Virus record (IMG/VR): IMGVR_UViG_3300025570_000016
Coordinates: 1 to 61,506 of that record
Direction: 5' to 3' (one strand)
Length of the DNA stretch: 61,506 nt
DNA from: a virus
Taxonomy: Duplodnaviria; Caudoviricetes
Shown: piece by piece, positions 8,828 to 56,300 of the stretch
Position numbering within the stretch: the stretch's first letter is position 1
How the letters are laid out: each line of letters opens with the position of its first letter
The notes under the pieces: generated by a model
Seen by the model: the letters and a program-made list of their open reading frames with translations, nothing else
Told to the model about the DNA's origin: nothing
The model's database searches: none
Program-made: the position numbers and the translations under genes

Positions 8828-9092
8828 TGTTGTCGTCTATTGAAATCATTAATAAAATAAGGTAACCACATAGGTCAAATAGCGTATCCTCCGTGCTATC
8901 TGATACACCTACGTTCTTTATCCTCGCTAACTTGTCATCAATCCTTGCGCATAATGAATCCGTTGACTTACCCTTATTGAATATGTTCAATGGCTCAAGC
9001 GCAGAACTTCCGTAATCCTTGTTCTTCTGTAGTAGCATGTCTCTAACCTTGTCAGCCTTCTGCTTTATCTGTAAACCTCTATCCTTGCTCAT
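8808..9092 (-). CDS. DUF1599 / nucleotide-modification-associated domain protein
   Basis: KNKDYGSS...RIDDKLARI...EDTLFDLCGYLIL. Confidence 0.78.
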   Translation of the reverse strand: MSKDRGLQIKQKADKVRDMLLQKNKDYGSSALEPLNIFNKGKSTDSLCARIDDKLARIKNVGVSDSTEDTLFDLCGYLILLMISIDDNNEKTGI

Positions 9093-9435
9093 CTATACTC
9101 TGCTTTACGTAATTAAATAATGAATACTCTACATGCTTTATGTCTACATCCTCATGCCATGCCCAACCAAACTTACCATTCTCAAGAAACTCAATACAGA
9201 AGCCTCCAATATACTTGCATACGGCCTTAGTACCTTTAGTTAGATTGGTGTTAGGATACCTCTGCTTAAGCCTATCCTCAGTCATAATCTGTCCCGTGGA
9301 GATGAATGTTTTATGGTCTAAGTTCTTAAGGTCTCCTAAGATTCTATTGCCGTTCTGAACGTAGTATTTATCCTTACTACCACTCATCTTCTCGGCAAGC
9401 AAATCTCTATTTATCAACTCTCTTATCGTCATCAT
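9079..9435 (-). CDS. Hypothetical protein
   Basis: ORF in operon. Confidence 0.65.
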   Translation of the reverse strand: MMTIRELINRDLLAEKMSGSKDKYYVQNGNRILGDLKNLDHKTFISTGQIMTEDRLKQRYPNTNLTKGTKAVCKYIGGFCIEFLENGKFGWAWHEDVDIKHVEYSLFNYVKQSIDEQG

Positions 9436-9538
9436 CTTGTTTTGCTTTTAAATCTCTTGAATACTTTACCATCTCCCACGCTATGAATATAGCTATGATG
9501 GTTATCGTGGTTATTACACCCATAAATAATCCTCCCAT
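9407..9538 (-). CDS. 43-aa single-TM peptide (not in ORF track)
   Basis: MGGLFMGVITTITIIAIFIAWEMVKYSRDLKAK...; coupled by TAATG to the upstream gene. Confidence 0.55.
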   Translation of the reverse strand: MGGLFMGVITTITIIAIFIAWEMVKYSRDLKAKQDDDDKRVDK

Positions 9539-9786
9539 TATACTTGTTTTAGTTCGTTCTTGCTCAGTAATACTGCGTTACCTACTATTACCATCCCCGC
9601 GAGATGTGAGGCTTCTGTGTTATGTGGTAGTGATTCGTTAAGGCCATTGTCGTTAACCACCAAGCCTTCGCCGTTAGGTAGGTAAACAATCTCTATGTAG
9701 CCGTCAACCGCTTGTTGCATACCACTCAATGTAAGTTCTGTGAAATTCTCTTGACGTGTTCCGTCAGATTTGATTAATGTTGCCAT
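9538..9786 (-). CDS. DUF3846-like protein
   Basis: TLSGMQQAVDGYIEIV...VVNDNG...LPHNTEAS...IVGNAVL; start moved to MATL, downstream of the promoter. Confidence 0.75.
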   Translation of the reverse strand: MATLIKSDGTRQENFTELTLSGMQQAVDGYIEIVYLPNGEGLVVNDNGLNESLPHNTEASHLAGMVIVGNAVLLSKNELKQV

Positions 9787-9813
9787 TGTGTTTGTTTTAG
9801 TGTTAGTGTTGTA

Positions 9814-9845
9814 CAAATATAGTATAACTTTTGTTTAATTCCAAA
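9814..9845 (-). promoter_or_regulatory. Bacteroidota sigma-A promoter
   Basis: TTTG-N20-TATATTTG. Confidence 0.85.
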
Positions 9846-9850
9846 TTTAA

Positions 9851-9890
9851 AGAGAAAAAAAAGAATCCGTGATAACGGATTCCCTTCTCT
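9851..9890 (-). terminator. Terminator built on palindrome 2 (core 9866-9879, one loop change)
   Basis: Minus strand GAATCCGT-TATC-ACGGATTC followed by a T-run. Confidence 0.75.
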
Positions 9891-10008
9891 CTGTCTTTGA
9901 ATACCTTTGCCAATATGAAAGTCTAACTAAAAGACTCGTGGTCTTGGCTATTAACCATAAGCAGGTATCCCCTCAATCCCCAAGACATCGGAGATTTTTA
10001 AATGACCA

Positions 10009-10248
10009 CTACAAATGTCCTCCGTATGTTGGTATACCCTCAGAATCTAATTCATCGTATCTCCACACCTCTCCATCCAAGACATGCTTCGTATCCACAA
10101 ACTTATTCTTTATTTTCCAATCGTACTTATCTTCGTTCTGCCAAAGCCACGTATCTAAATGCTCTTGGTCTACGTTTTCGGGTATCTCAATCTCCACGAT
10201 TACTTTCTTGAAATACTTTCTCTCTGCCGTTATTCTTACCTTTCTCAT
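10009..10248 (-). CDS. Hypothetical protein
   Basis: ORF, likely start MRKVRIT. Confidence 0.6.
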   Translation of the reverse strand: MRKVRITAERKYFKKVIVEIEIPENVDQEHLDTWLWQNEDKYDWKIKNKFVDTKHVLDGEVWRYDELDSEGIPTYGGHL

Positions 10249-10342
10249 AATGTTATTCTTTAAAATCGTTTGCACTCACTATGACTATCAAAATCATAGC
10301 TATTGTTGTTGCTATAAATAAAGTTGCGTACATGTTTTTGTC

Positions 10343-11410
10343 TTAAAAGTTATACACTTCTGCTAATGTGTACCAATCATCGCACCCATTACAATGGTAT
10401 TGGTTTATGGTATCATCGTATTGTAGAGGCTGAAAGCAAATCATACACTCCTTAGATTGTGTATCACAACAATCATCATCGGTAGCTAAGTCTACATCGT
10501 AGTAGCTATTAAAGTTTATCTGCTGACACGTATCCACAACCCTTGGTCTTCGGTACCCCGTGTAGTTCTGAACGTAACTCTTATGCATCTCTGTACTTGA
10601 ATCAACCTTCTTAGGGTTAAAGTATAACCACGCGTTAATCACTCTACCATCCTTCATTCTGATAGGTATCTGCCTGCGCTTGTACCAATTAGGGTGACCC
10701 TCTAATGCGTCAATCTCCTTGAATGCCTTATCTGAGACCTTGAAGATGTCCACCTCAACATGATGTCCACTACCCCTTTGGTCTACCATGTATGGCAACC
10801 CCTCAATCAGTAATGGGTATTTGTCGTAAGTCTCCCCTCTACCTAAATGCTTTGATGATGTTAGGTATGAGTAGTAGTTGCTATAACCTTTCTTCAACGT
10901 GCCGTATACTGCAATAAGATTGTCTTGCAGTACATTGGCTTTTGAGTACCATATACCGTCTCGGTATGTGTAGGCATCTCTGTTGTACATTTGGAATGAA
11001 CGATTACGCTTGTTGACCGTTACAAACCGTGAGTCATACTGCTCCAACTCTTTCTTCCATAGTTGCCTTGGTATCTGACCAAGCGATATAGCTAACGCTT
11101 TTGAATCTGACATCTGAGCATTACCCATACCCTTGATAGTTCCATTCATCATTAGCCACTCATCTTTCTGCACCCCACATTGGAATGGGTGCATGTTCTC
11201 TCTGTTTACTGCTCCGACAGTAGCATATCTAAAGTGAGCAATAAACGGTCTATCTGTTAGTAGTAGACCATAGTCTTTTGACTCGTGATACGTTATCTCA
11301 AACGTATCTAACCACACGATACCAAGTCCGTGAGGATTAATCCTTGCTGATGTCTTCGCAATCTCTCGCGACATCATCTGCTTTTTCTGTTTAATAATAA
11401 TTACGCACAT
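10343..11410 (-). CDS. Class II glutamine amidotransferase fused to gamma-glutamylcyclotransferase, with C-terminal Zn ribbon
   Basis: Start MCVII (Ntn Cys), NPHGLG, HFRYATVG, NMHPF, NGTI, SDS; VYGTLKKG and LEGHP (GGCT/AIG2); CMIC...CNGC. Confidence 0.88.
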   Translation of the reverse strand: MCVIIIKQKKQMMSREIAKTSARINPHGLGIVWLDTFEITYHESKDYGLLLTDRPFIAHFRYATVGAVNRENMHPFQCGVQKDEWLMMNGTIKGMGNAQMSDSKALAISLGQIPRQLWKKELEQYDSRFVTVNKRNRSFQMYNRDAYTYRDGIWYSKANVLQDNLIAVYGTLKKGYSNYYSYLTSSKHLGRGETYDKYPLLIEGLPYMVDQRGSGHHVEVDIFKVSDKAFKEIDALEGHPNWYKRRQIPIRMKDGRVINAWLYFNPKKVDSSTEMHKSYVQNYTGYRRPRVVDTCQQINFNSYYDVDLATDDDCCDTQSKECMICFQPLQYDDTINQYHCNGCDDWYTLAEVYNF

Positions 11411-11432
11411 TGTGTTTAATGTTTGTGAGGAA

Positions 11433-11446
11433 TCCGTTATAACGGA
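11433..11446. repeat. TCCGTTATAACGGA palindrome 3, in the 5' leader of GATase-GGCT
   Basis: Lies between the promoter at 11471-11502 and ATG 11410. Confidence 0.95.
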
Positions 11447-11470
11447 CTGACCTCTGATTAGTGAATTGTA

Positions 11471-11502
11471 CAAATATAAGACAAAATTTAGACATAGCCA
11501 AA
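11471..11502 (-). promoter_or_regulatory. Bacteroidota sigma-A promoter
   Basis: TTTG-N20-TATATTTG; spacer largely shared with 13205-13236. Confidence 0.85.
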
Positions 11503-11503
11503 T

Positions 11504-11662
11504 TTAATGTCCGTTATCTATCAAGGCTTCTGTTACCTTCATTCCTTGCTTCTTAGCTTCCTCTTCCAATGTAGGAAAACAAGCTATGAATAGTTCTTCT
11601 GTTTCAAACGTAGCCACGCATTCAGCATGATTACTGCTCTCAAAGTATACTTCTACGTACAT
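11504..11662 (-). CDS. 52-aa hypothetical protein (not in ORF track)
   Basis: MYVEVYFESSNHAECVATFETEELF...; preceded by the 18-bp leader repeat. Confidence 0.65.
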   Translation of the reverse strand: MYVEVYFESSNHAECVATFETEELFIACFPTLEEEAKKQGMKVTEALIDNGH

Positions 11663-11702
11663 GATTTACTTCTTTTTAGGTTTAGTTTTAGTTTAGTTTG
11701 TA

Positions 11703-11945
11703 TTAGATATGATAAAATTTTATCGTATCAGTATATTTAGGTAGCTTCTTAAAACCATCTTGTCTTTTTATTTCAATAACTCCATTTTCTACTGCCACAT
11801 ATTCCCAACCATAATTAGTCATGCCATAGGCATTGATTATTCCTACTATCTCTTTGACGTTATTTGTTGGTAGGTCGCAGATAGTCATTTGCGTTTCGCT
11901 AAATTCGTCTAAAAATGTGCATTCGTAAAGTTTCTTACTTTCCAT
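11703..11945 (-). CDS. Early hypothetical protein
   Basis: ORF between 18-bp repeats. Confidence 0.7.
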   Translation of the reverse strand: MESKKLYECTFLDEFSETQMTICDLPTNNVKEIVGIINAYGMTNYGWEYVAVENGVIEIKRQDGFKKLPKYTDTIKFYHI

Positions 11946-11970
11946 AATTTCTACTTCTTTTTAGGTTTAG

Positions 11971-12198
11971 TTAGATGCACCAACATCCGTCTTCGGTTTC
12001 TTTTAATATGTATAACTTCTTCTTATTAGCTTTTTCTTTATCAAGAAACTGAATACCATTGACAACAAGATCGTCTATGTTTAACTCGTTTAAATCTACA
12101 TCCATTTCAAGTAGATAATCCATAAGCTCTTCGTAATACTCATTGTCTATGTCTACACAACAAGACATCATAAGTCTGTTTAAATTAAATTCTTTCAT
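11971..12198 (-). CDS. Early acidic hypothetical protein
   Basis: ORF between 18-bp repeats. Confidence 0.7.
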   Translation of the reverse strand: MKEFNLNRLMMSCCVDIDNEYYEELMDYLLEMDVDLNELNIDDLVVNGIQFLDKEKANKKKLYILKETEDGCWCI

Positions 12199-12217
12199 AA
12201 CTTACTTCTTTTTAGGT

Positions 12218-12403
12218 TTAAATTAAATCTCCGTTCTCATCAAAAGAACCTATTACATCTTCTTCTTCAGTTTCTTTTTCTTTCTTGTAGATTGACATTC
12301 TGTACTCATCATCTACCATACGTTTAGTCATCTGTTGTTCAATGCTAATGCCTTCAATCATGCCTTGCATCATGGACTCGAATAATTTTTTGGTCTGTCC
12401 CAT
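12218..12403 (-). CDS. Early hypothetical protein
   Basis: MGQTKKLFE; AAACACAATG leader. Confidence 0.7.
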   Translation of the reverse strand: MGQTKKLFESMMQGMIEGISIEQQMTKRMVDDEYRMSIYKKEKETEEEDVIGSFDENGDLI

Positions 12404-12418
12404 TGTGTTTAATTTATT

Positions 12419-12482
12419 GGTTAAGACTCAAATCCGCTATAACGGATTCAAGTTTCGGATATTCAACCCTCATCAGTTAACC
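12419..12482 (-). ncRNA. Hammerhead ribozyme, type I, with palindrome 4 inside stem III
   Basis: GGUUAA CUGAUGA GGGU-UGAAU-AUCC GAAA CUUGAAUCCGU-UAUA-GCGGAUUUGAG UC^UUAACC. Confidence 0.88.
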
Positions 12483-12486
12483 TATT

Positions 12487-12795
12487 TTAGGTAGTTATTA
12501 TCTCAAAGTTATACGCCTCTATTTCATTCTTAATAAAATTTTTACCCTCTTCCGTTGTTACAACTTCGTCTATCCATAAAGAGAATAAAGAATTGTGTAG
12601 TTTATCAAATTCATCATCTGAAACACATTGTATTATCTTGTGAAATATGGGTGCAATTTCTTTGTTGTTAATCCACCACTCACCTAAAGATTCGTCACAT
12701 ACGTATCTTAAGAAAAATCTATATGCTGAAATAGTTGGCTCGTTTTCTACAATAAACTTGTTTAAATCGTTATCATAAATTGAAACTCTTTTCAT
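12487..12795 (-). CDS. Early hypothetical protein
   Basis: ORF. Confidence 0.7.
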   Translation of the reverse strand: MKRVSIYDNDLNKFIVENEPTISAYRFFLRYVCDESLGEWWINNKEIAPIFHKIIQCVSDDEFDKLHNSLFSLWIDEVVTTEEGKNFIKNEIEAYNFEIITT

Positions 12796-12815
12796 ATCGT
12801 TTTAGTTTTAAAGGT

Positions 12816-13007
12816 TTATAGGTCTAATTTATATTCTAATCTGTTCTGCATCTCCGTTTCAATCATAGCAATAAATGTCGAATCGTATTTACAGCCTTTC
12901 GGGAATTCTTTTCTGTACTCTGTTATGTCTCTGTGGACTAACTTCAATGTGTAATCACTCATAAGACCTATTAGGTCATAAGCAGATTGTGTTTCTAAAT
13001 GTGCCAT
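12816..13007 (-). CDS. Early hypothetical protein
   Basis: ORF. Confidence 0.65.
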   Translation of the reverse strand: MAHLETQSAYDLIGLMSDYTLKLVHRDITEYRKEFPKGCKYDSTFIAMIETEMQNRLEYKLDL

Positions 13008-13018
13008 AGCTTTGTAGT

Positions 13019-13183
13019 TTAAGTTATTTCGTATCCAAACGAATGTATTGAATTCTCGTTGAGCATCTTCAATAACTGCTTGTACTCTCTTGTCGCAGTC
13101 GGTCTCTTGCAGTCACGCACTGCCAATGTAGATGAGTTAATTCCAACCCCTTTTAACGTGTAGAAAAATCTTACTCTTAACAT
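13019..13183 (-). CDS. Early hypothetical protein
   Basis: Start MLRV, downstream of the promoter. Confidence 0.6.
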   Translation of the reverse strand: MLRVRFFYTLKGVGINSSTLAVRDCKRPTATREYKQLLKMLNENSIHSFGYEIT

Positions 13184-13204
13184 AGTTTCTGTGTTTGATT
13201 TAGA

Positions 13205-13236
13205 CAAATATAATACTAAATTTAGACATATCCAAA
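13205..13236 (-). promoter_or_regulatory. Bacteroidota sigma-A promoter
   Basis: TTTG-N20-TATATTTG. Confidence 0.85.
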
Positions 13237-13238
13237 TG

Positions 13239-13400
13239 TTAGTCTATATTTTTATGTGTTAATACTAAGTATAACGTGTATACTCCAAATGGTAGTAGGT
13301 AAATGTATCCTACCTCTGTCGTGATAGCAAACAAGAATATTATCATAATGTTTGCCATAATCAATGCGAATATTGTCGCGTAGTCTAAAATCTTCTTCAT
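13239..13400 (-). CDS. Small two-TM membrane protein
   Basis: MKKILDYATIFALIMANIMIIFLFAI... Confidence 0.6.
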   Translation of the reverse strand: MKKILDYATIFALIMANIMIIFLFAITTEVGYIYLLPFGVYTLYLVLTHKNID

Positions 13401-13401
13401 C

Positions 13402-13626
13402 TTATTTGTCGTTTTGCTTGAATGCTTCCAATGTCTTTGTGTAATTGGATAGCTTCGTTTGTAATAATTTAATGGTCTCACGCGTATCATCGCACACGTA
13501 GGTGTTACACTCCGCCAATCTGAATTGGTAGAAATGAATGCTGTGGTTAACCTTATCTAGGTCAGCAATATACTGCTCAGTAGATGCGATTAAATTTCTC
13601 AATTCTCTTCTCTCAATTGTATCCAT
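13402..13626 (-). CDS. Coiled-coil hypothetical protein
   Basis: Start MDTIERR, downstream of the ribozyme; the listed upstream extension reads through the ribozyme. Confidence 0.65.
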   Translation of the reverse strand: MDTIERRELRNLIASTEQYIADLDKVNHSIHFYQFRLAECNTYVCDDTRETIKLLQTKLSNYTKTLEAFKQNDK

Positions 13627-13646
13627 ATCAATATGTTTAAATGGTT

Positions 13647-13697
13647 TCCGTTTCGACCTTTTGGTCTCATCAGCACAAGCACTCACTTGTGGACGGA
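13647..13697 (-). ncRNA. Hammerhead ribozyme, type III
   Basis: UCCGUC^CACAAG-UGAGUG-CUUGUG CUGAUGA GACC-AAAA-GGUC GAAACGGA. Confidence 0.93.
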
Positions 13698-13698
13698 T

Positions 13699-13724
13699 GA
13701 GGAATCCGTTATAACGGACTCCCC
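13699..13724 (-). repeat. Hairpin with palindrome 5 (core 13705-13718)
   Basis: GGGGAGTCCGTTATAACGGATTCCTC, directly 5' of the ribozyme. Confidence 0.92.
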
Positions 13725-13731
13725 ACATACG

Positions 13732-14688
13732 TCATCTTAAAGTCTCCGCTCTAAGGCTTCTTGTGTACAAGTGACTCAAGTTACCAAATCGGTCAACGAA
13801 TGGTTTCACTGCGTGGTTAATTTTACGCGTCATCAACATCTTTCTGAAATGCTTTGATAACTCCATAACCTCAGACACCTTATCTGCGTCGCCATTGTAC
13901 ATCATCATGAGAATTGGTTTCAACTTGCTTAGAAGACCTCTATGCGTTCCATTTGGCTTATTCACCGCGTAGTTAACAATCTCATACATCAATCTGTATC
14001 TAAAGTTCAAATCAGCTACACTCTTCACCCTACTCGGCAATCTAAACTCAATCCTATTGTCATCAATACGGCATACTTGGTATTTGTGATGAGTACTAAT
14101 TCCGTCCCACTCAGACCGGCATACATCCATGAAGATGTTTGACTGACACCACGTTCTTCGCAATCTGAATCGGTATAGCGCGTAGATGATTCCACTGAAT
14201 GGTCTAATTGCGTCAGCTAACTCTTCTCCGCTCATCCCTTTAACCGCTAGGTTAATGTGACCCCCACATTCGATGTCTGACGGCGAGAATTGGTCATCAA
14301 TGACATGCTTCGCTTCGCTGAACATATTGAAGATTTTGTTCCTCCAAACGGATTTGCCAATCAACGGAAGTACATTTGTGATAGCTTCAACACCACATGA
14401 CCCGTCAGTCTCAAAGTGACTGAGCAAAGGGTATTCCTTGACCGCATTACGATGAAATGTGTTCTTCTCAATCTCAAAGCCAATAGTAAAACGCGACTCA
14501 ATCTCTCCCTCATCAGTTACATTGGTAGTTAAATTCATTTCATTGTGAGGTAAATGCTTTAGGTCATATTGGAATGGTGTTTTGTCAAACATCCTATAAG
14601 GCAATCCATTGCGCTTTGCCCACCCATAAGATAGCATTCGACCGCGGTCCTCATTGCCCTCAGTAGTGTAAGTGATTTGTGCATTCAT
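13732..14688 (-). CDS. Putative amidoligase (COOH-NH2 ligase, Amidoligase_2-like)
   Basis: FTIGFEIE, ETDGSCGVEAIT, CGGHINL, RIEFRLP. Confidence 0.82.
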   Translation of the reverse strand: MNAQITYTTEGNEDRGRMLSYGWAKRNGLPYRMFDKTPFQYDLKHLPHNEMNLTTNVTDEGEIESRFTIGFEIEKNTFHRNAVKEYPLLSHFETDGSCGVEAITNVLPLIGKSVWRNKIFNMFSEAKHVIDDQFSPSDIECGGHINLAVKGMSGEELADAIRPFSGIIYALYRFRLRRTWCQSNIFMDVCRSEWDGISTHHKYQVCRIDDNRIEFRLPSRVKSVADLNFRYRLMYEIVNYAVNKPNGTHRGLLSKLKPILMMMYNGDADKVSEVMELSKHFRKMLMTRKINHAVKPFVDRFGNLSHLYTRSLRAETLR

Positions 14689-14713
14689 AATCTATGTAGT
14701 TAATGGTTTAAAA

Positions 14714-14764
14714 TCCGTTTCGACCTCTTGGTCTCATCAGCGCAGGACACTACCTGCGGACGGA
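14714..14764 (-). ncRNA. Hammerhead ribozyme, type III
   Basis: UCCGUC^CGCAGG-UAGUGU-CCUGCG CUGAUGA GACC-AAGA-GGUC GAAACGGA. Confidence 0.93.
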
Positions 14765-14765
14765 A

Positions 14766-14793
14766 CAGAAAATCCGTTATAACGGATTCTCTG
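14766..14793 (-). repeat. Hairpin with palindrome 6 (core 14773-14786)
   Basis: CAGAGAATCCGTTATAACGGATTTTCTG, directly 5' of the ribozyme. Confidence 0.92.
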
Positions 14794-14807
14794 CATCATC
14801 TTAGTGA

Positions 14808-15497
14808 TTAGCTCCATATACCAATTGCTCTGATGATTTTCAATGAGTCAGCTTCAAATTCATCCTTAATGTATTGAGGCACCTTGTCTGCGTCTCCGTC
14901 AATTGTCCATTGAGCATCATCGTATAGCTTCACTACAACTCCAATTCCGTCTTCGAATAACTGCCCGTTAACAATGTAAGATTTGATAACCTTACTTGTA
15001 GTTTCCTCAGCATTTGCTTCAGCGCTCGCTTCAGCGGTAGCTTCAGCAGATTCCTCTGTGCTTACTACCTGCGCATCATCTCCGCTTTGCTCAGCCTTGA
15101 TAAACTTGATAAGATTAGCAATTGAGCGCGATGCAGTTACGTTCCCTGAATTCTCCATGGTTGTACATTGTCGCTTGTATTTCGATACAATGTTTTGGTC
15201 TTCCACAACAACCTTACCCACTCTGTTTTGGTCAGCAAAGAATGAATACTTCCACCCGAAGATATCCATAGCGAATTCTTCTTTGGTCATCACAATACCG
15301 GCATACTCAAAGCACTGCTTTCCCTCAGGCGATTTAAACCATTGGTAGGTCAGGTGCACCTTTTTAGCTAGCTTGATTTTCTTGTCGAATGCAGTCACGT
15401 CATTAGCATTCAATTCATTCAATAGAGCAACTGCACCATTGAATTCCGCTACATTGCTTTCTAGCAATTCAGCTACATTTGTGTTTAATGTTCTCAT
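14808..15497 (-). CDS. First early gene, hypothetical protein
   Basis: 229-aa ORF with Ala/Glu-rich linker; TATCTTAG promoter-like box near 15547-15556. Confidence 0.75.
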   Translation of the reverse strand: MRTLNTNVAELLESNVAEFNGAVALLNELNANDVTAFDKKIKLAKKVHLTYQWFKSPEGKQCFEYAGIVMTKEEFAMDIFGWKYSFFADQNRVGKVVVEDQNIVSKYKRQCTTMENSGNVTASRSIANLIKFIKAEQSGDDAQVVSTEESAEATAEASAEANAEETTSKVIKSYIVNGQLFEDGIGVVVKLYDDAQWTIDGDADKVPQYIKDEFEADSLKIIRAIGIWS

Positions 15498-15599
15498 AAT
15501 CAGTAGTTTAAGTGGTTATCGCTCGGGGTGTATCCCCAACCGCACAGCTAAGATACGTCTAATTCTCGTATAAAAAAACTATATGCAGATTATTTATAC

Positions 15600-15965
15600 A
15601 TTATTTTGACAGAATTTGTACAAGCGCAGTAAACACGCAATATGCAGCGCGGTGTATTTGGGGCAATTTATTTGGGGCTAATTTGGTCGGGCGGGGGCAA
15701 TCTCTTATGTGCTGATATGCAATATTGAGATTTGTCTTTGGGGCAAAGACATGGAGCGCAGTGAATACGCGGTAGAATCCGTTATAACGGAACACGTAAA
15801 ACGTGGACGGACGGGGGACGGGGGACGGACGGACGGGGGACGGGGACGCGTAGCAAAACGTCAAAAAATCCACATGCGCAGGACAAAAGCACACCCCCAC
15901 CCTTGAAAAAAAAATCGGTTTCGTTCGAGGGTGCGCGCGCGTGCGGCGGGGGGGAACCCACAACC
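15600..15965. other. GC-rich non-coding strand-switch region (candidate genome end or origin)
   Basis: TTTGGGGC x3, GCGCAGTRAAYACGC x2, palindrome 7 (15778-15791), GGAC/GGGGGAC tandem array. Confidence 0.6.
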
Positions 15966-15999
15966 TACACATATCTAAAAATTTTTGTATCTTTACCCC

Positions 16000-16152
16000 A
16001 TGTATGAGATAGAACTACAGAATAGAATTAAGATAGGTTTTTGCTTAGGCTTTGGTATATACCCAAACGATAAGGATTATAACTTCTCGGAGTACATTTT
16101 ATATTTAGGATTAATTAGTATACACATAAAAATTTTCAGGGATGAACTATAG
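16000..16152 (+). CDS. 50-aa hypothetical protein (not in ORF track)
   Basis: MYEIELQNRIKIGFCLGFGIY...; overlaps the next ATG. Confidence 0.55.
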   Translation: MYEIELQNRIKIGFCLGFGIYPNDKDYNFSEYILYLGLISIHIKIFRDEL

Positions 16153-16330
16153 TGGATTAAAAGTAAAGGACGGTCGATTGATTAATGATAGACCAACAGG
16201 TAAAAGCGGTATTGAAGAGGCTTCAGAAATTCGCAAGGCTGTAAAGATGAACGAGAAGGCAAATGTTATTGCTAACGGAATAGAAAAAGCTGAAATGCGT
16301 AAGGATATGCGCAACATGTTCGGCAAATAA
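16142..16330 (+). CDS. Hypothetical protein
   Basis: ORF followed by a terminator. Confidence 0.65.
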   Translation: MNYSGLKVKDGRLINDRPTGKSGIEEASEIRKAVKMNEKANVIANGIEKAEMRKDMRNMFGK

Positions 16331-16384
16331 CATCATTGTGTTTGATGGTTGAATTGATTGGGTAGTGACTTTCAATTCGTAAGA

Positions 16385-16407
16385 GAGGGGTTATCCCCTC
16401 TTTTTTT
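16385..16407 (+). terminator. Intrinsic terminator
   Basis: GAGGGG-TTAT-CCCCTC then T7. Confidence 0.8.
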
Positions 16408-16444
16408 GTTTATGCTTTGACAATAGTCGTCATAAATAGTTAAT

Positions 16445-16581
16445 ATTATGATGATTTAATGACAACTTTAAAAACGTAAAATATTGGTTATCAATTACTT
16501 TGATAATAATGATAACTTTTTACTTAATTTGTAGTGAATAAAAAAAGAGAGAGAGAGATATATTATATATATATATATAGA
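16445..16581. repeat. Origin-like AT-rich element, copy 2
   Basis: Same motif order and spacing as 5869-5990. Confidence 0.65.
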
Positions 16582-16629
16582 GCGACCCTAACGAATCAAT
16601 AGTTTATTACTTTATTAAAAAAGATTTAC

Positions 16630-16637
16630 TATCTTTG
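16630..16637 (+). promoter_or_regulatory. Bacteroidota -7 box upstream of groEL
   Basis: TATCTTTG; similar intergenic TAnnTTTG boxes at 19599, 20405, 24259, 31141, 34576, 41621, 50476 (+) and 19613-19620 (-). Confidence 0.75.
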
Positions 16638-16659
16638 TGTGAAATCAAATCAAATAACA

Positions 16660-18270
16660 ATGAATCAAACAGGATACACTCCGAAAGATTTACACTTCGA
16701 TAAGGAAGGTAGAGAAAAACTATTCAGCGGTTTAGATAAAATTGCTACCGCTGTGAAGAGCACACTTGGTCCTCAAGGTAACACGGTGCTTATTGAATCA
16801 CAAGAACATACTCATGGGATGACTGTCACCAAGGATGGTGTAACTGTAGCGAAGTCAATTGCTTTGCTTGACCCTGTGGAGAATCTAGCAGTCAGAATCA
16901 TGAAGGAGGCTTCGGAGAAGACTGCTGTATCTGCGGGTGATGGAACGACTACAGCTATTGTTCTATCTGAGGCTTTGGTAAACGCAGGTGTTTTATGCAT
17001 TGATGAAGATAATAATAAAACTGCTGTTTTCAGGGAGCTAGTTAAAGCAACTAGTCATGTTGTGGACAAGTTAAAGAAAATGAGTAAGCCTGTTACTGAT
17101 AAGAAGCTAGCTAGTGTAGCTACTATATCGGCTAACAATGACCCTGCGGTTGGTAAGATTATTGCTGACGTGTATAAGGAGGTTGGTTCAAATGGTATCG
17201 TTACCGTTGAGCGCAGTCAAACTGCTCAGACCTACTACGAGACTACTAAGGGTATTAAGGTTGACAGGGGCTATACCTCTAACTTATTCATTAACAATCA
17301 CAAGAAGGACGAGTGCATACTCGAGGATACTTATGTCTTGGTTAGTGACGCTGAGATAAGTAACGTGCTACAGATTGAGAATGTTCTCAAGCCTATCATT
17401 ACTAACAACAGCAAGCTGCTTATTATTGCGCCATGCTCTACTAATGTGGTAAACACGTTGGCCGCTAACGTAATGAAGAACGGCTTAAAGATATGCGTGA
17501 TACAGCCGCCGAACTTTGGCTACAAGCAGCACGAGCTGATGAATGATATTGCATTGTCTGTTGGGGCTACCTACTACAGTGAGAAGACGGGTGATGACCT
17601 GAGCTTAATTACCGCGGATGACTTGGGTAAAGCCAAGAAGGTTATCGTGGGTAGAAACCAAACAATTGTCATCAAGGATGATGAGGTGGTGTCAGAAGAA
17701 TCTATACAGGAGCGTGTAGAGCAATTACAGGACGCTCACGAGCTTTCAATGAGTAAGGATGAGAAAGAGTTCATTCTGTCTAGGATAGCGTCTCTAACGG
17801 GCGGAATCGGCGTTATATACGTAGGTGGTAACACTGACCTAGAGCAGAAGGAGTTGCATGACCGTGTTGACGATGCTGTATGCGCAGTTCGCTCAGCTAC
17901 CGTCGAGGGTATACTACCGGGAGCGGGTATGTCTTTAGCTTACATTGCCGAGAACATCGAACTGAATCATGAGTGGGGTGCTGACAAGTTCTCTGCCTAT
18001 GAGATGCTTAAGATAGCTTTAAAAGCTCCTGCACAAACAATTCTTGAGAACGCGGGTCTTAGTTACTATGAAATGTATAGTGAGGATAAACCGAAAAAGG
18101 GGTACGGGTATGACGTTAAAAATGGCAAGCACGGTAACCTAATGAGCATGGGCGTTATTGACCCAATGAAGGTTACTAAGAGTGCGCTTCAAAATGCTGT
18201 GTCAGTAGCTGTCACACTTCTCAGCACCAACGCTATTGTGACAATGGCACGTAGCTATGAGACCAAGTAA
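16660..18270 (+). CDS. groEL: Chaperonin GroEL
   Basis: TLGPQG, TKDGVTVAK, AGDGTTTA, GVIDPMKV; no GGM tail; start at MNQT. Confidence 0.96.
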   Translation: MNQTGYTPKDLHFDKEGREKLFSGLDKIATAVKSTLGPQGNTVLIESQEHTHGMTVTKDGVTVAKSIALLDPVENLAVRIMKEASEKTAVSAGDGTTTAIVLSEALVNAGVLCIDEDNNKTAVFRELVKATSHVVDKLKKMSKPVTDKKLASVATISANNDPAVGKIIADVYKEVGSNGIVTVERSQTAQTYYETTKGIKVDRGYTSNLFINNHKKDECILEDTYVLVSDAEISNVLQIENVLKPIITNNSKLLIIAPCSTNVVNTLAANVMKNGLKICVIQPPNFGYKQHELMNDIALSVGATYYSEKTGDDLSLITADDLGKAKKVIVGRNQTIVIKDDEVVSEESIQERVEQLQDAHELSMSKDEKEFILSRIASLTGGIGVIYVGGNTDLEQKELHDRVDDAVCAVRSATVEGILPGAGMSLAYIAENIELNHEWGADKFSAYEMLKIALKAPAQTILENAGLSYYEMYSEDKPKKGYGYDVKNGKHGNLMSMGVIDPMKVTKSALQNAVSVAVTLLSTNAIVTMARSYETK

Positions 18271-53320: not shown

Positions 53321-56300
53321 ATGAACGAGCAGGTATTAAAAGATTTATACGATAGAGCTGTATCTAAAGGTTATCAAAAATCTATTGAAGAGTTTAATGC
53401 GTTACTACAAAGTAATGAGAATGTATTAGCCGACAACTATGGTTACGTGCAAGAGAAGGGATACCAAAAGTCTCTTGAAGATTTCTCTGTTTTAGTAGGA
53501 GTAAAAAAAAAAGAAGATTCGGTTTCAGTTTCTCAGCAGGTCGTTACGGATTCTACTATACCACAGCAGCAGGAAGAGGTTATTTCTTCGGAGTCTATCA
53601 CACTTGAAGAACCTTCTGAATATACTGTTGTACAGGATGCAGAACCAAGTAGAAGGTATCAGGGTGATAAACCGATTTCATTAGAGAAGTCTACCGCTAT
53701 TGAGAGAGTGTTCGGTAAGAACGAACTTACCGATTTGTTTGGTGACATCTATAGAGCAGGTGCAGCAGGTCAAGCCCAAGGTGGTTCTGTTGACGAGGCT
53801 TTAGAGTTGTTTGCAAAAGGTTCTGACGTTTCAGATGATGACATCCAAGAATTTATTGCTGCACAAAAACGCATGCAATCTATGGGTGAGTCTGATGAGA
53901 TGCGTGATTTCCAAGAAATTTATCAAGAGAATGGTGGCGGTTGGCTAGGCTTTGTAAAAGGTGTGGCTAAAAACCCTACCGTTATACCACAGTTATTCGT
54001 ATCGTCAGTTAGTGCTATGGCTACCCCTGCAGTCCTTGCGGGTGCAGCAGGTGGTGCAGCAGGTGGTGCTTTAGTTGGTGGGCCTGCCGGAGCTTTAATA
54101 GGTGCTATGGGTATGGCCGGTACTACGCTTGAGACAGGTCTTACTTACGCTGAGCTACTACAAGAGCAGCTTGGTGACAAGCCTATGACCACTGAGAATA
54201 TAAGAGCTGTATTAGGAGACAAGGAAGCGATGGATGAGATTCGCTTTAAAGCTGTAGGGCGTGGTCTTACAATTGGTACTATTGATGCTATCACGGGTGG
54301 TCTTGCAGGTAAGCTTACTACTAGCGTTGTAAAATCTACAGGTCGAAAACTTTTAGGTGCTACCGCAGGTGGTACTGTCGAGGCTGTAGGTGGTTCTGCG
54401 GGTGAGGTTGCAGGTAGATTGGTTGCGGGTCAAGAGATGGACGTTGCTGAGATTGGTTTTGAAGGTATTGCCGGTACAGCCACAGCCCCACTGACTGTAG
54501 GTTATGGTCTTTACAAAGCCCCTAAATACCATATAAATGGTAAGGATAAAAACGCTGCAGTATCAGGTCCTGATATGGCTAGGTTTATTAGAGAGGCTAA
54601 CCCTAACGATTTAATTAAGGCTGAGGTTAACATTGTTAACGACGATGTGCTGCAGGCTGAGTATACAAAGAAATACCAAGAGGCTGTAACTAAGAGAGAT
54701 ATATCTGAGGCTGACCCTGAGATGAACCAACCTACGCTTGACGCTATCACAGAGCTTCAGGTAGAGTTGAATAACCTTAAGGGTAAAGACAATCAGGTAG
54801 CTAAGGATAGAGCTAAGGTTATAAGAGAGGAGATAAAGAATCTTCAAGAGAACCCATTAACAGAAGAAACAGATGCCATTCAAGAGCCAAGCGCAGAGAC
54901 GGTGGATGTACAAGAACAAACCGGAGTTAGCGAAGGAGTTCGAGAAGGAGACACCGACATCACAGCAGTTACCGAAGAGGTTACACAAGAAGAAGTACAA
55001 GAACAAGATGTCTCTCCGGAGCTACAGAGCGAGGTAGACAAAGCTATTGCAGACGAGCAGTTAGACTTAACTGAGTTAGACCAAGCTATTACTGAAGAGG
55101 CGGCCACTGAACAGGCGGTTACTGAGGAGTCTATCGCTGAGGAAGTTGCACCTGAAGAGGTGGTTACCGAAGATGCTGTTGCTGAAGATGCTGTTACTGA
55201 AGTATCTATATCTAATAAAGAACAGGTTAACAACCTTATTGATAAAGTTGATTCTAATAAACAGCAAATAATAAATAGTGCAGTCAAAGCTGTTAATACC
55301 TTAAAGTCTGTATTACCTAACTTTGATATTATAATACACGACACCACTGATAGCTATAATTCTAAGATGGCTAAGGTTAATGGTAATGAAAATTCTCGTG
55401 GCAGCTTCTCTTATTCAATTAACGAGAACGGAGACTTTGTAGGTAGCATAGATATTAACTTAACTAATGCTAGGGTTAGAACGGTTGCTCATGAAGTGAC
55501 TCATGCTGTTTTACTAAAATCATTTGGTGAAGCCCCTGCTACATTTTCAAAATTTAAGAATAAAATATCGCAGATAATTAAATCAGATGACAACGTAGCT
55601 CTTCAAGAGTTTGCTGATTTATACGATAGAGATGTAGCTCCTGAGGAATATATTACAGAGCTTACTGCAATGCTTGCTGAGAAGGGGACTAAGATAAGCC
55701 CGTCTACATTACAAAAAATTGGAGCATTAATAAACGAATTAGTGTCTAAGATTACTAATGGTAAATTAAAACCATTTGAAGAACTGTCTAACATCAATGA
55801 GTTAGCTGATTTCTTTAACACCGTCTCTCAAGCAATAGCTGAGGGGGATGTGATTGACTCTGACGGCGTTACTGAGAAAATAAATGTAGACGCTACACCT
55901 AACGAAACAGAGGTTGATACCGGCAGCTTAACGTCTAAGTCAAGTTTAATTCAAGACTTAGGGCTTACTAGGTTTAAAGAGATGTCTTCAAGAATAAAGA
56001 CGGGCGTCACCATAAAAGATGTTGGAGAAGTAGAGTCTCATTTAACTTTCGCAGATAGATTAGTTACAGGTAAGGTTGGGACTGAAGATTATTTAGGCGG
56101 TATATTATTCGCCGCAGCGACAGGTAATGTTTGGGCCTCTTTTAAGCTAGGGAAAGTTAATTCTATAATCAAAGGAATGCCTAAAAATAAAGACGGCTTC
56201 CGATACTTAATGCCCGCTCTTCTTACTGAGTCATCGCACATGTCTAACAAGAACATGGTTATGACATCGTTAAAATTAATGAATGATTCCATAAAAAATA

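Follow-up and report, generated by a model that had tools for sequence, protein, structure and literature searches.

The DNA analysed here, hereafter the window, is a whole phage contig of 61,506 bases (IMG/VR record IMGVR_UViG_3300025570_000016). In three gaps between small genes of its minus strand it carries hammerhead ribozymes, each of them coupled to a hairpin built on the same palindrome (Table 1). The gaps belong to a minus-strand block that extends from about 16.3 kb down to 0.6 kb and holds about 25 small genes together with recombination and replication genes, among them those for a Sak-type annealing protein, an exonuclease, a primase-helicase and a helicase; judging from this gene content, the block is probably early. 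A GroEL-sized gene, the terminase, the portal and the structural genes lie on the plus strand, and a tRNA search with ARAGORN found none.

Table 1. Positions of the ribozymes, hairpins, genes and promoter-like sites in the window (aa, amino acids; nt, nucleotides; ORF, open reading frame).
Feature	Position	Strand	Remarks
Hammerhead 1, type III	14714..14764	minus	GUC 14761-14759; predicted cut after 14759
Hammerhead 2, type III	13647..13697	minus	GUC 13694-13692; predicted cut after 13692
Hammerhead 3, type I	12419..12482	minus	GUC 12427-12425; predicted cut after 12425
13-bp hairpin	14765..14794	minus	palindrome 14772-14787 at top; directly adjoins hammerhead 1 stem III
~12-13-bp hairpin	13698..13726	minus	palindrome 13704-13719 at top; abuts hammerhead 2 stem III
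229-aa gene	14808..15497	minus	from the ORF list; upstream of hammerhead 1; stop 14810-14808
318-aa gene	13732..14688	minus	between hammerheads 1 and 2
74-aa gene	13402..13626	minus	ATG 65 nt past predicted cut 2
102-aa gene	12487..12795	minus	upstream of hammerhead 3; stop 12489-12487, four bases before stem I
61-aa gene	12218..12403	minus	ATG 21 nt past predicted cut 3
Promoter-like site	13205..13236	minus	pattern search; Bacteroidota type TTTG..TAnnTTTG, consensus match only
Promoter-like site	11471..11502	minus	pattern search; nearly identical to 13205-13236
Promoter-like site, looser	9814..9845	minus	pattern search; just past a terminator

The two type III elements (sites 1 and 2) share one layout, in which the stem III strand UCCGU is followed by C17, a 6-bp stem I with a 6-nt loop and a 4-bp stem II with a 4-nt loop. 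The parts of site 1 read UCCGUC, stem I CGCAGG/CCUGCG, CUGAUGA, stem II GACC/GGUC, GAAA and ACGGA, and site 2 has stem I CACAAG/CUUGUG in the same arrangement. The type I element (site 3) runs GGUUAA-CUGAUGA-stem II (4 bp)-GAAA-stem III (12 bp)-GUC-UUAACC, with the palindrome (12432-12447) as the top of its stem III. All three sites possess the hammerhead core, that is CUGANGA, GAAA, the A15.1-U16.1 pair and an unpaired H17 after U16.1, and the core columns are invariant in the family alignments given below. When both strands were scanned with a descriptor that demands the core and all three helices in either topology, exactly three hammerheads came out of the whole genome, all of them intergenic, on the coding strand and beside the palindrome.

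A preliminary description of this region had placed full cores in these three gaps, had read the difference in stem I between sites 1 and 2 as compensatory, and had given the order as stop codon, hairpin, GUC and ATG with 70, 65 and 21 nt from cut to ATG. The sequence and the descriptor scan bear out the cores, and the stem I change, the order and the three distances are all correct, the ATGs being at 14688, 13626 and 12403. The Rfam check that it had suggested gave a divided result: at gathering score nothing was matched in the whole window, and sub-threshold matches appeared in E-value mode on 12000-15200. These were Hammerhead_3 (RF00008) at site 1 with 42.6 bits (E 3e-7; cut-off 48.5), a local match to the same family at site 2 with 18.0 bits (cut-off 48.5), and RAGATH-1-hammerhead (RF03152) at site 3 with 26.1 bits (cut-off 56.3). 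An E-value scan of the whole window, where stricter filters apply to the longer input, did not return the hammerheads. The elements thus resemble RF00008 and RF03152 in core, three-helix topology and full-length alignment to the models, but differ from the members of these families in scoring under the gathering cut-offs, which is why routine annotation misses them. With our own models the scores were 71.5 bits (R2) at site 1, 80.6 bits (R2) at site 2 and 83.8 bits (R1) at site 3.

The minimum free energy (MFE) structure of 14706-14800 has -39.7 kcal/mol (z -6.4) and that of 13639-13733 has -39.2 kcal/mol (z -5.2); at site 3 the MFE structure is the hammerhead fold itself. None of the three ribozyme hairpins was listed in a scan of 5800-16700 for intrinsic terminators (a G+C-rich hairpin plus a run of U). 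They are therefore not intrinsic terminators, and the type I design also needs transcription to continue through the hairpin. Upstream of each type III module stands the 10-mer TAAGATGAYG (at 14794-14803 and at 13730-13739 on the minus strand; two occurrences versus 0.38 expected). In the MFE structures of sites 1 and 2 its GAUG/GACG pairs with CGUC at the cut site, and this predicted 4-bp pairing could be an alternative helix.

Conservation in relatives and two phage-borne families

The nearest GenBank record to the window is MW202828.1, from an uncultured spring podophage, with 74.5% identity between the primases, and cultured podophages of Flavobacterium and other Bacteroidota are remoter kin; this is a phage of Flavobacterium type. 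Neither the ribozyme region nor the site 2 module had a blastn match among GenBank phages. With the 318-aa protein as query, twelve IMG/VR loci were found with proteins 40-98% identical to it. This protein matches no Pfam or PHROG family; in the Atlas its neighbours are viral clusters, and in one of these 12% of the members are Amidoligase_2, which is a lead only. Whole-record scans counted three hammerheads in the window, five in relative G001, four in G003, one each in G004 and G005, and four in G002 in addition to one copy without its 3' part; all of these, those of the window included, lie within the one gene block, on its coding strand. In G001, G003, G004 and G005 a type III hammerhead follows the homologue of the 318-aa gene. 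The start of the 61-aa gene, ATGGGACAG, likewise follows an orthologous type I hammerhead in relatives.

Hammerhead 2 is the most telling case. All of its 51 nt are identical in the window and in loci L002, L005 and L006, among which the adjacent protein is 59-87% identical; one base differs in L003, and L001 has one compensatory pair in stem II. Across the window, L001-L003, L005 and L006 the protein beside it is only 59-98% identical, and this identity of the site despite a diverged neighbouring protein rules out the long ORF 13402-13728 as the cause of conservation. In G004 and G005, where the protein is about 41% identical, the homologous gene likewise has a hairpin and a type III hammerhead behind it. 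These two ribozymes have a GUA triplet, compensatory changes in stems I and II and a U-U mispair at 10.1-11.1, and their hairpin sequences are unrelated. The G004 copy was also found by a search with family RF00008, at 28 bits; an Rfam E-value scan of L008-L012 gave no match.

The gap at site 1 has changed its type of ribozyme. The 229-aa protein is 41-42% identical to the product of the gene that precedes a type I hammerhead in G001 and G003, and this orthologous gap holds a hairpin with a type III hammerhead in the window and L001, and a type I hammerhead in G001 and G003. Such a swap at one gap fits the idea of the preliminary description that it is the cut just 3' of the hairpin that matters. 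In the truncated G002 copy (G002:42495-42560; about 3771-3836 in L003), which is of type I, the 5' part and the hairpin are intact, the GUC and the 3' strand of stem I are lost, and a different downstream sequence adjoins. This copy is probably a recombination scar.

Beyond these relatives, both types belong to large phage-borne families. A type I pattern search of IMG/VR gave 66 stretches with 83 ribozymes (71 distinct), 76 of them with enough flank for analysis. The type III stem II pattern was found in at least 120 IMG/VR stretches, and the descriptor assigned 108 of the matches listed to type III, 6 to type I and 20 to neither. A covariance model built from ten clade sequences gave 133 matches, among those listed, in the window and 99 of 119 loci, and several contigs have four or five type III members each. 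Covariation was assessed separately for the two families. In an alignment of 12 type I sequences from the window and relatives, every cell pairs (264/264; slid controls 21-38%) and 9 of the 22 pairs change on both sides. In the type III alignment of the 133 matches (118 distinct), which was fitted to its model and so favours pairing, 95.5% of 1749 cells pair versus 63.8% when shuffled, slid controls still giving 28-49%; both sides change at 13 of 15 pairs, and the covariation score is 0.847 versus 0.220. The three elements of the window are genuine hammerheads under selection. The 10.1-11.1 pair next to the core is non-standard (e.g. U-U, A-A) in 54 of the 118 distinct type III members listed, and the remaining stem II pairs of these members covary.

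The hairpin and the geometry of the module

In the type I family, the distance from cut to ATG is 18-24 nt in 67 of the 76 relatives with enough flank, and in 69 of the 76 the ATG begins an ORF 40 codons or longer. The upstream stop codon lies between -5 and +7 nt relative to the ribozyme start in 63/76, being the TAA inside GGUUAA 26 times and the TGA of CUGAUGA 7 times. The type I module therefore has its stop in or at stem I, its hairpin as stem III, then the cut and the ATG.

The type III modules were examined in 100 unique IMG/VR hammerheads among the matches listed, with 393 45-mers from the same loci as controls. The upstream 45-mer folds at -10 kcal/mol or better in 74 of the 100 compared with 56/393 controls, and in those 74 the hairpin is 0 nt from stem III in 51 cases and 1 nt from it in 8. 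An upstream ORF of at least 40 codons ends no more than 90 nt away in 82 of the 100, with a median of 33 nt from stop to stem III, and the median from the 3' end of the ribozyme to the ATG is 22 nt. The survey of relatives for this linkage, which had been proposed from the window, thus finds it well beyond chance and kept even where the hairpin sequence is unrelated. Type III hairpin sequences vary widely, so that structure is what is kept. Since stem III of type I is itself the 3'-terminal hairpin of the upstream product, both designs would leave the same end.

A palindrome particular to each genome

The view that the palindrome is a genome-wide motif holds good, as the 16-mer occurs nine times in the window (at 6795, 9865, 11432, 12432, 13704, 14772, 15777, 33736 and 60352), three of the copies being at the three ribozymes; 0.21 copies are expected and none of 100 shuffles reaches nine. 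The window version is TCCGT-N4-ACGGA, with eight copies and a one-mismatch copy inside site 3. Other genomes have versions of their own: GTCTGT-N4-ACAGAC in G001 and G002 (15 and 16 copies), GTCCGT-N4-ACGGAC in G003 (13 copies), GTCTCT-N4-AGAGAC in G004 (9 copies) and GTGTCG-TTAA-CGACAC in MW202828.1 (14 copies in 20 kb), while two further contigs have GTGTCT arms. Within a genome the arms are constant and the loops vary; between genomes all copies change together, and orthologous sites with conserved flanks, as well as the tops of type I stem III, carry each genome's own palindrome. Change of this concerted kind suggests either a sequence-specific partner or spread by copy-and-paste. A recurrent hairpin serving as type I stem III was not found outside the clade, the seven of the 66 loci that have one all reading GTCCGT or GTCTGT, and G005 has no signature motif, yet keeps hairpin and ribozyme.

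The palindrome is not confined to the ribozymes. Three terminators also have it at their top, one on the minus strand (9865) and two on the plus strand (33736 and 60352), the minus-strand one being listed at 9853-9892 in the terminator scan of 5800-16700, and the copy at 11432 is in a 5' leader just past a promoter-like site. The G-U pairs in the flanks of stem III and of the terminators work on the coding strand only, so the hairpin acts as RNA. Five of the 14 palindromes of MW202828.1 (L126; 3543, 5801, 10019, 11047 and 14433) are inside annotated genes, including the primase, and the other nine are 2-3 nt past a stop and about 16-25 nt (37 nt in one case) before an ATG. In the strand-switch region of the window (15793-15830, minus strand) a G/C-rich CGTCC + CCCCGT repeat stands directly beside the palindrome.

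Three other uses of these sequences were considered and rejected. A switch by cross-pairing of the palindrome with stem III is not conserved: matching arms occur in the window and in G003, but the arms are one base off in G001, G002 and G004. As for a promoter read by a hairpin-reading polymerase, the 2339-aa ORF has no Pfam match and the type I design needs read-through; this ORF (53321-60340) matches a PHROG of unknown function over residues 122-568. In the case of split or trans-acting hammerheads, the only exact match to GTCTTAACC is the ribozyme itself, and extra substrate half-sites with at most one mismatch number 18 versus 15.9 expected.

Possible roles of the module

We propose, with a probability of about 0.62, that these are cis-acting hammerhead modules placed between genes, which cut read-through RNA 3' of the hairpin. 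From the motif and structure, their conservation, the fixed geometry and the link to a hairpin we infer that cleavage takes place in the cell, that it leaves a protected end and that it may affect translation. RNA polymerase would pass through the gap, and the ribozyme would then fold and cut at the GUC. The upstream message would keep its stop codon and end in the long hairpin and no more than about 6 nt beyond it, and would carry a 2',3'-cyclic phosphate; such an end would resemble that made by an intrinsic terminator, but transcription would continue. The downstream message would begin with a 5'-hydroxyl, followed after a type I cut by a 21-nt A/U-rich leader, and after a type III cut by the folded ribozyme body and about 22 nt. 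The hairpin used would be the phage's own signature palindrome, the one also found atop terminators and in one 5' leader. The cuts would chiefly give the 318-aa gene, which lies between cuts 1 and 2, its own stabilised message, and would supply the 61-aa gene with a fresh 5' end. That the leader is fixed at about 21 nt suggests that the module also, or instead, serves the start of translation, the hosts seemingly doing without Shine-Dalgarno pairing.

Several observations weigh against this proposal. All three sites score under the Rfam gathering scores, and the MFE structures of sites 1 and 2 contain the hairpin, stem I and stem II, and not stem III. Among the 100 type III members listed, stem III is in the MFE structure of only 27, and enforcing it costs a median of 1.5 kcal/mol. 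No hammerhead was found in the 20 kb of MW202828.1 scanned, though palindromes are present, and the hairpin therefore has some role for which a ribozyme is not needed; the hairpin system is older or wider than the ribozymes. Within the minus-strand block, only 3 of about 25 gaps have a ribozyme, and three promoter-like sites and one terminator divide the genes. The 32-nt elements at 13205-13236 and 11471-11502 read TTTGG.TATGTCTAAATTT.GT.TTATATTTG, and the first of them would start the hammerhead 3 transcript. The pattern used, which we take to be the Bacteroidota promoter consensus, has six matches in the window versus 3.0 expected, a weak excess. The preliminary description had seen here an operon-processing system making monocistronic mRNAs. 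Real hammerheads, the hairpin link and the swap of types speak for it, but with so few ribozyme gaps, and with internal promoter-like sites and a terminator, few messages would be isolated, chiefly that of the 318-aa gene.

Contigs from RNA libraries bear on the same question. Relatives 88-95% alike are represented by contigs in two metatranscriptome runs from one study and in two runs labelled 'RNA?', and the window phage itself was in no RNA run among the sequencing runs examined. One RNA contig ends at 13693, next to predicted cut 13692/13691, and another ends at 12419, near predicted cut 12425/12424, followed by foreign letters that are presumably sequencing adapter; contigs cannot show RNA ends, and these are from one study. 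Contigs from two RNA-library runs of one study, again from relatives 88-95% identical, bridge sites 1 and 3, so that some RNA, or contaminating DNA, is uncut at these sites. Contigs of this sort are ambiguous, and on balance they speak neither for nor against cutting. Contigs of relatives at 88-95% also skip 61, 180, 464 and 587 bases between hairpin sites within 11694-13702, which suggests that small genes are gained and lost as cassettes.

The explanation that competes best has rather less than an even chance of being the main one. Here the hairpin is mainly structural, stacking on a weak stem III of 4-5 bp and shielding the fold from upstream coding RNA and terminating ribosomes, with end protection secondary. 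The marginal stability of stem III alone in the listed members is what such a helper helix would answer, the hairpin is 0-1 nt from stem III in 59 of the 74 type III members listed, and in type I the hairpin itself is stem III. Not every module has one, however, since 26 of the 100 type III members listed are without a strong upstream hairpin, and the palindrome also stands alone at terminators, in a 5' leader and in plain gaps. This explanation is compatible with end protection, and both may hold.

A less likely alternative starts from the palindrome, and makes the signature hairpin the site of a sequence-specific trans-acting factor, of phage or host, which controls termination, cutting or decay and of which the hammerheads are one output. 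It would account for arms that are constant per genome and change in concert between genomes, also inside the ribozymes. No candidate partner protein was found, though, the small proteins flanking the ribozymes having no Pfam or PHROG family. The intragenic copies of MW202828.1, five of its 14, fit a DNA-level or mobile element equally well, and G005 keeps hairpin and ribozyme without the motif. A bolder version, in which the hairpin is a universal punctuation mark read by a co-evolving factor, with a U-run, a hammerhead or nothing attached, and in which the abutting hairpin is an unrecognised functional fourth helix in a phage ribozyme family of very large size, we hold to be more doubtful still.

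No better placed than the trans-acting factor is the notion that the main purpose is downstream translation, the cut freeing a short, fixed, unstructured leader in a host without Shine-Dalgarno pairing and upstream stability being incidental. The narrow cut-to-ATG range of type I (18-24 nt in 67/76), the 22-nt median from the 3' end of type III to the ATG among matches listed, and the A/U-rich leaders of the window clade, with no obvious ribosome-binding motif, all lean this way. Ribozymes that aid translation initiation have been reported in eukaryotic RNA viruses, according to the part of that work available (PMC13725137), and this is counted in its favour. MW202828.1, however, has the same spacing from hairpin to ATG without a ribozyme, and after a type III cut the ribozyme body would remain on the 5' end.

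It is improbable that the units of hammerhead and hairpin are simply the boundaries of exchangeable cassettes, where repeats promote recombination and cutting is of little benefit. Ribozyme number and type do differ between close relatives, the G002 copy without its 3' part is beside a different gene, whole small genes between hairpin sites are missing from contigs of relatives, and the 10-mer before both type III modules suggests module duplication. Strong purifying selection, compensatory changes in core and stems, and the fixed stop/start geometry nevertheless argue that selection acts on catalysis itself. The idea of chance matches or of relics without activity, to which the scores under the Rfam cut-offs might point, can be set aside, as the genome has only three matches, each of them between genes, on the coding strand and by a palindrome, and the covariation in two independent families already contradicts this explanation.

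If the modules cut read-through RNA behind a hairpin, as we favour, they have counterparts among known systems. In the early transcript of T7, host RNase III cuts between genes, inside a hairpin, and the upstream messages keep a protective 3' hairpin; here, in contrast, the RNA would cut itself just past the hairpin, leaving a cyclic phosphate and a 5'-hydroxyl. Synthetic insulators of the RiboJ type place a hammerhead and a hairpin before a gene and so standardise its 5' end, but they are engineered and stand after promoters, whereas the present modules are natural and between genes. Co-evolving, species-specific hairpins are known from REP elements and their transposases, CRISPR repeats and Cas6, and lambdoid boxB and N, where the stem is shared within a genome and differs between relatives. 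The difference is that no candidate partner was found here and that the hairpin is built into ribozymes and terminators.

The closest precedent is the set of clustered prophage hammerheads of all types that flank genes, three sets of which cleave in vitro, and the processing of long transcripts into gene-length mRNAs by clustered phage hammerheads had been proposed with them, as far as the available text goes (Perreault et al. 2011, PMC3088659). As there, hammerheads of mixed type occur in a single orientation in gaps between phage genes that are small and not conserved. The 318-aa gene stands between hammerheads 1 and 2, with hammerhead 3 about 1.2 kb further on the same strand, and G001 and G003 show clusters of this kind as well. 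The available text of that paper makes no mention of an abutting hairpin, of stop/start spacing or of a genome-wide hairpin as stem III, and its filter dropped 10.1-11.1 mispairs of the sort present in 54 of our 118 distinct members listed. In the literature, seen partly in excerpt, no account was found of a hairpin abutting phage hammerheads, of the stop/start geometry or of a shared genome-wide hairpin; the supplementary alignments and figures of Perreault et al. may hold examples. The novelty asserted in the preliminary description is narrowed accordingly, since clustered processing hammerheads are already in print and it is the abutting hairpin of which no description was found. The ribozymes add new members to a known class and are arranged in a known way; what seems to be new is the hairpin coupling and its genome-wide concerted evolution.

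The role of bacterial and phage hammerheads is called open in reviews, in the portions available (PMC6155905, PMC6765202). A module with a fixed geometry (stop, hairpin, cut, leader of about 21 nt, start) makes this question testable, and nature has provided three experiments in the swap of types I and III at one gap, the hairpins without ribozymes and the hairpin that drifts in concert. Function can be tested directly, because phages of the genus Elemovirus, which infect Flavobacterium, are in culture and have copies of both types (type I at 51 bits, E 7e-14; type III at 30 bits, E 9e-7, the latter at 7195-7247 in L246). In one Flavobacterium phage, elemoB (NC_062741.1; L246), the annotated start of gp69 (locus 9041) is inside the type I hammerhead at 9003-9060, and the ATG at locus 9084, 28 nt past the predicted cut, is a better match to the family geometry.

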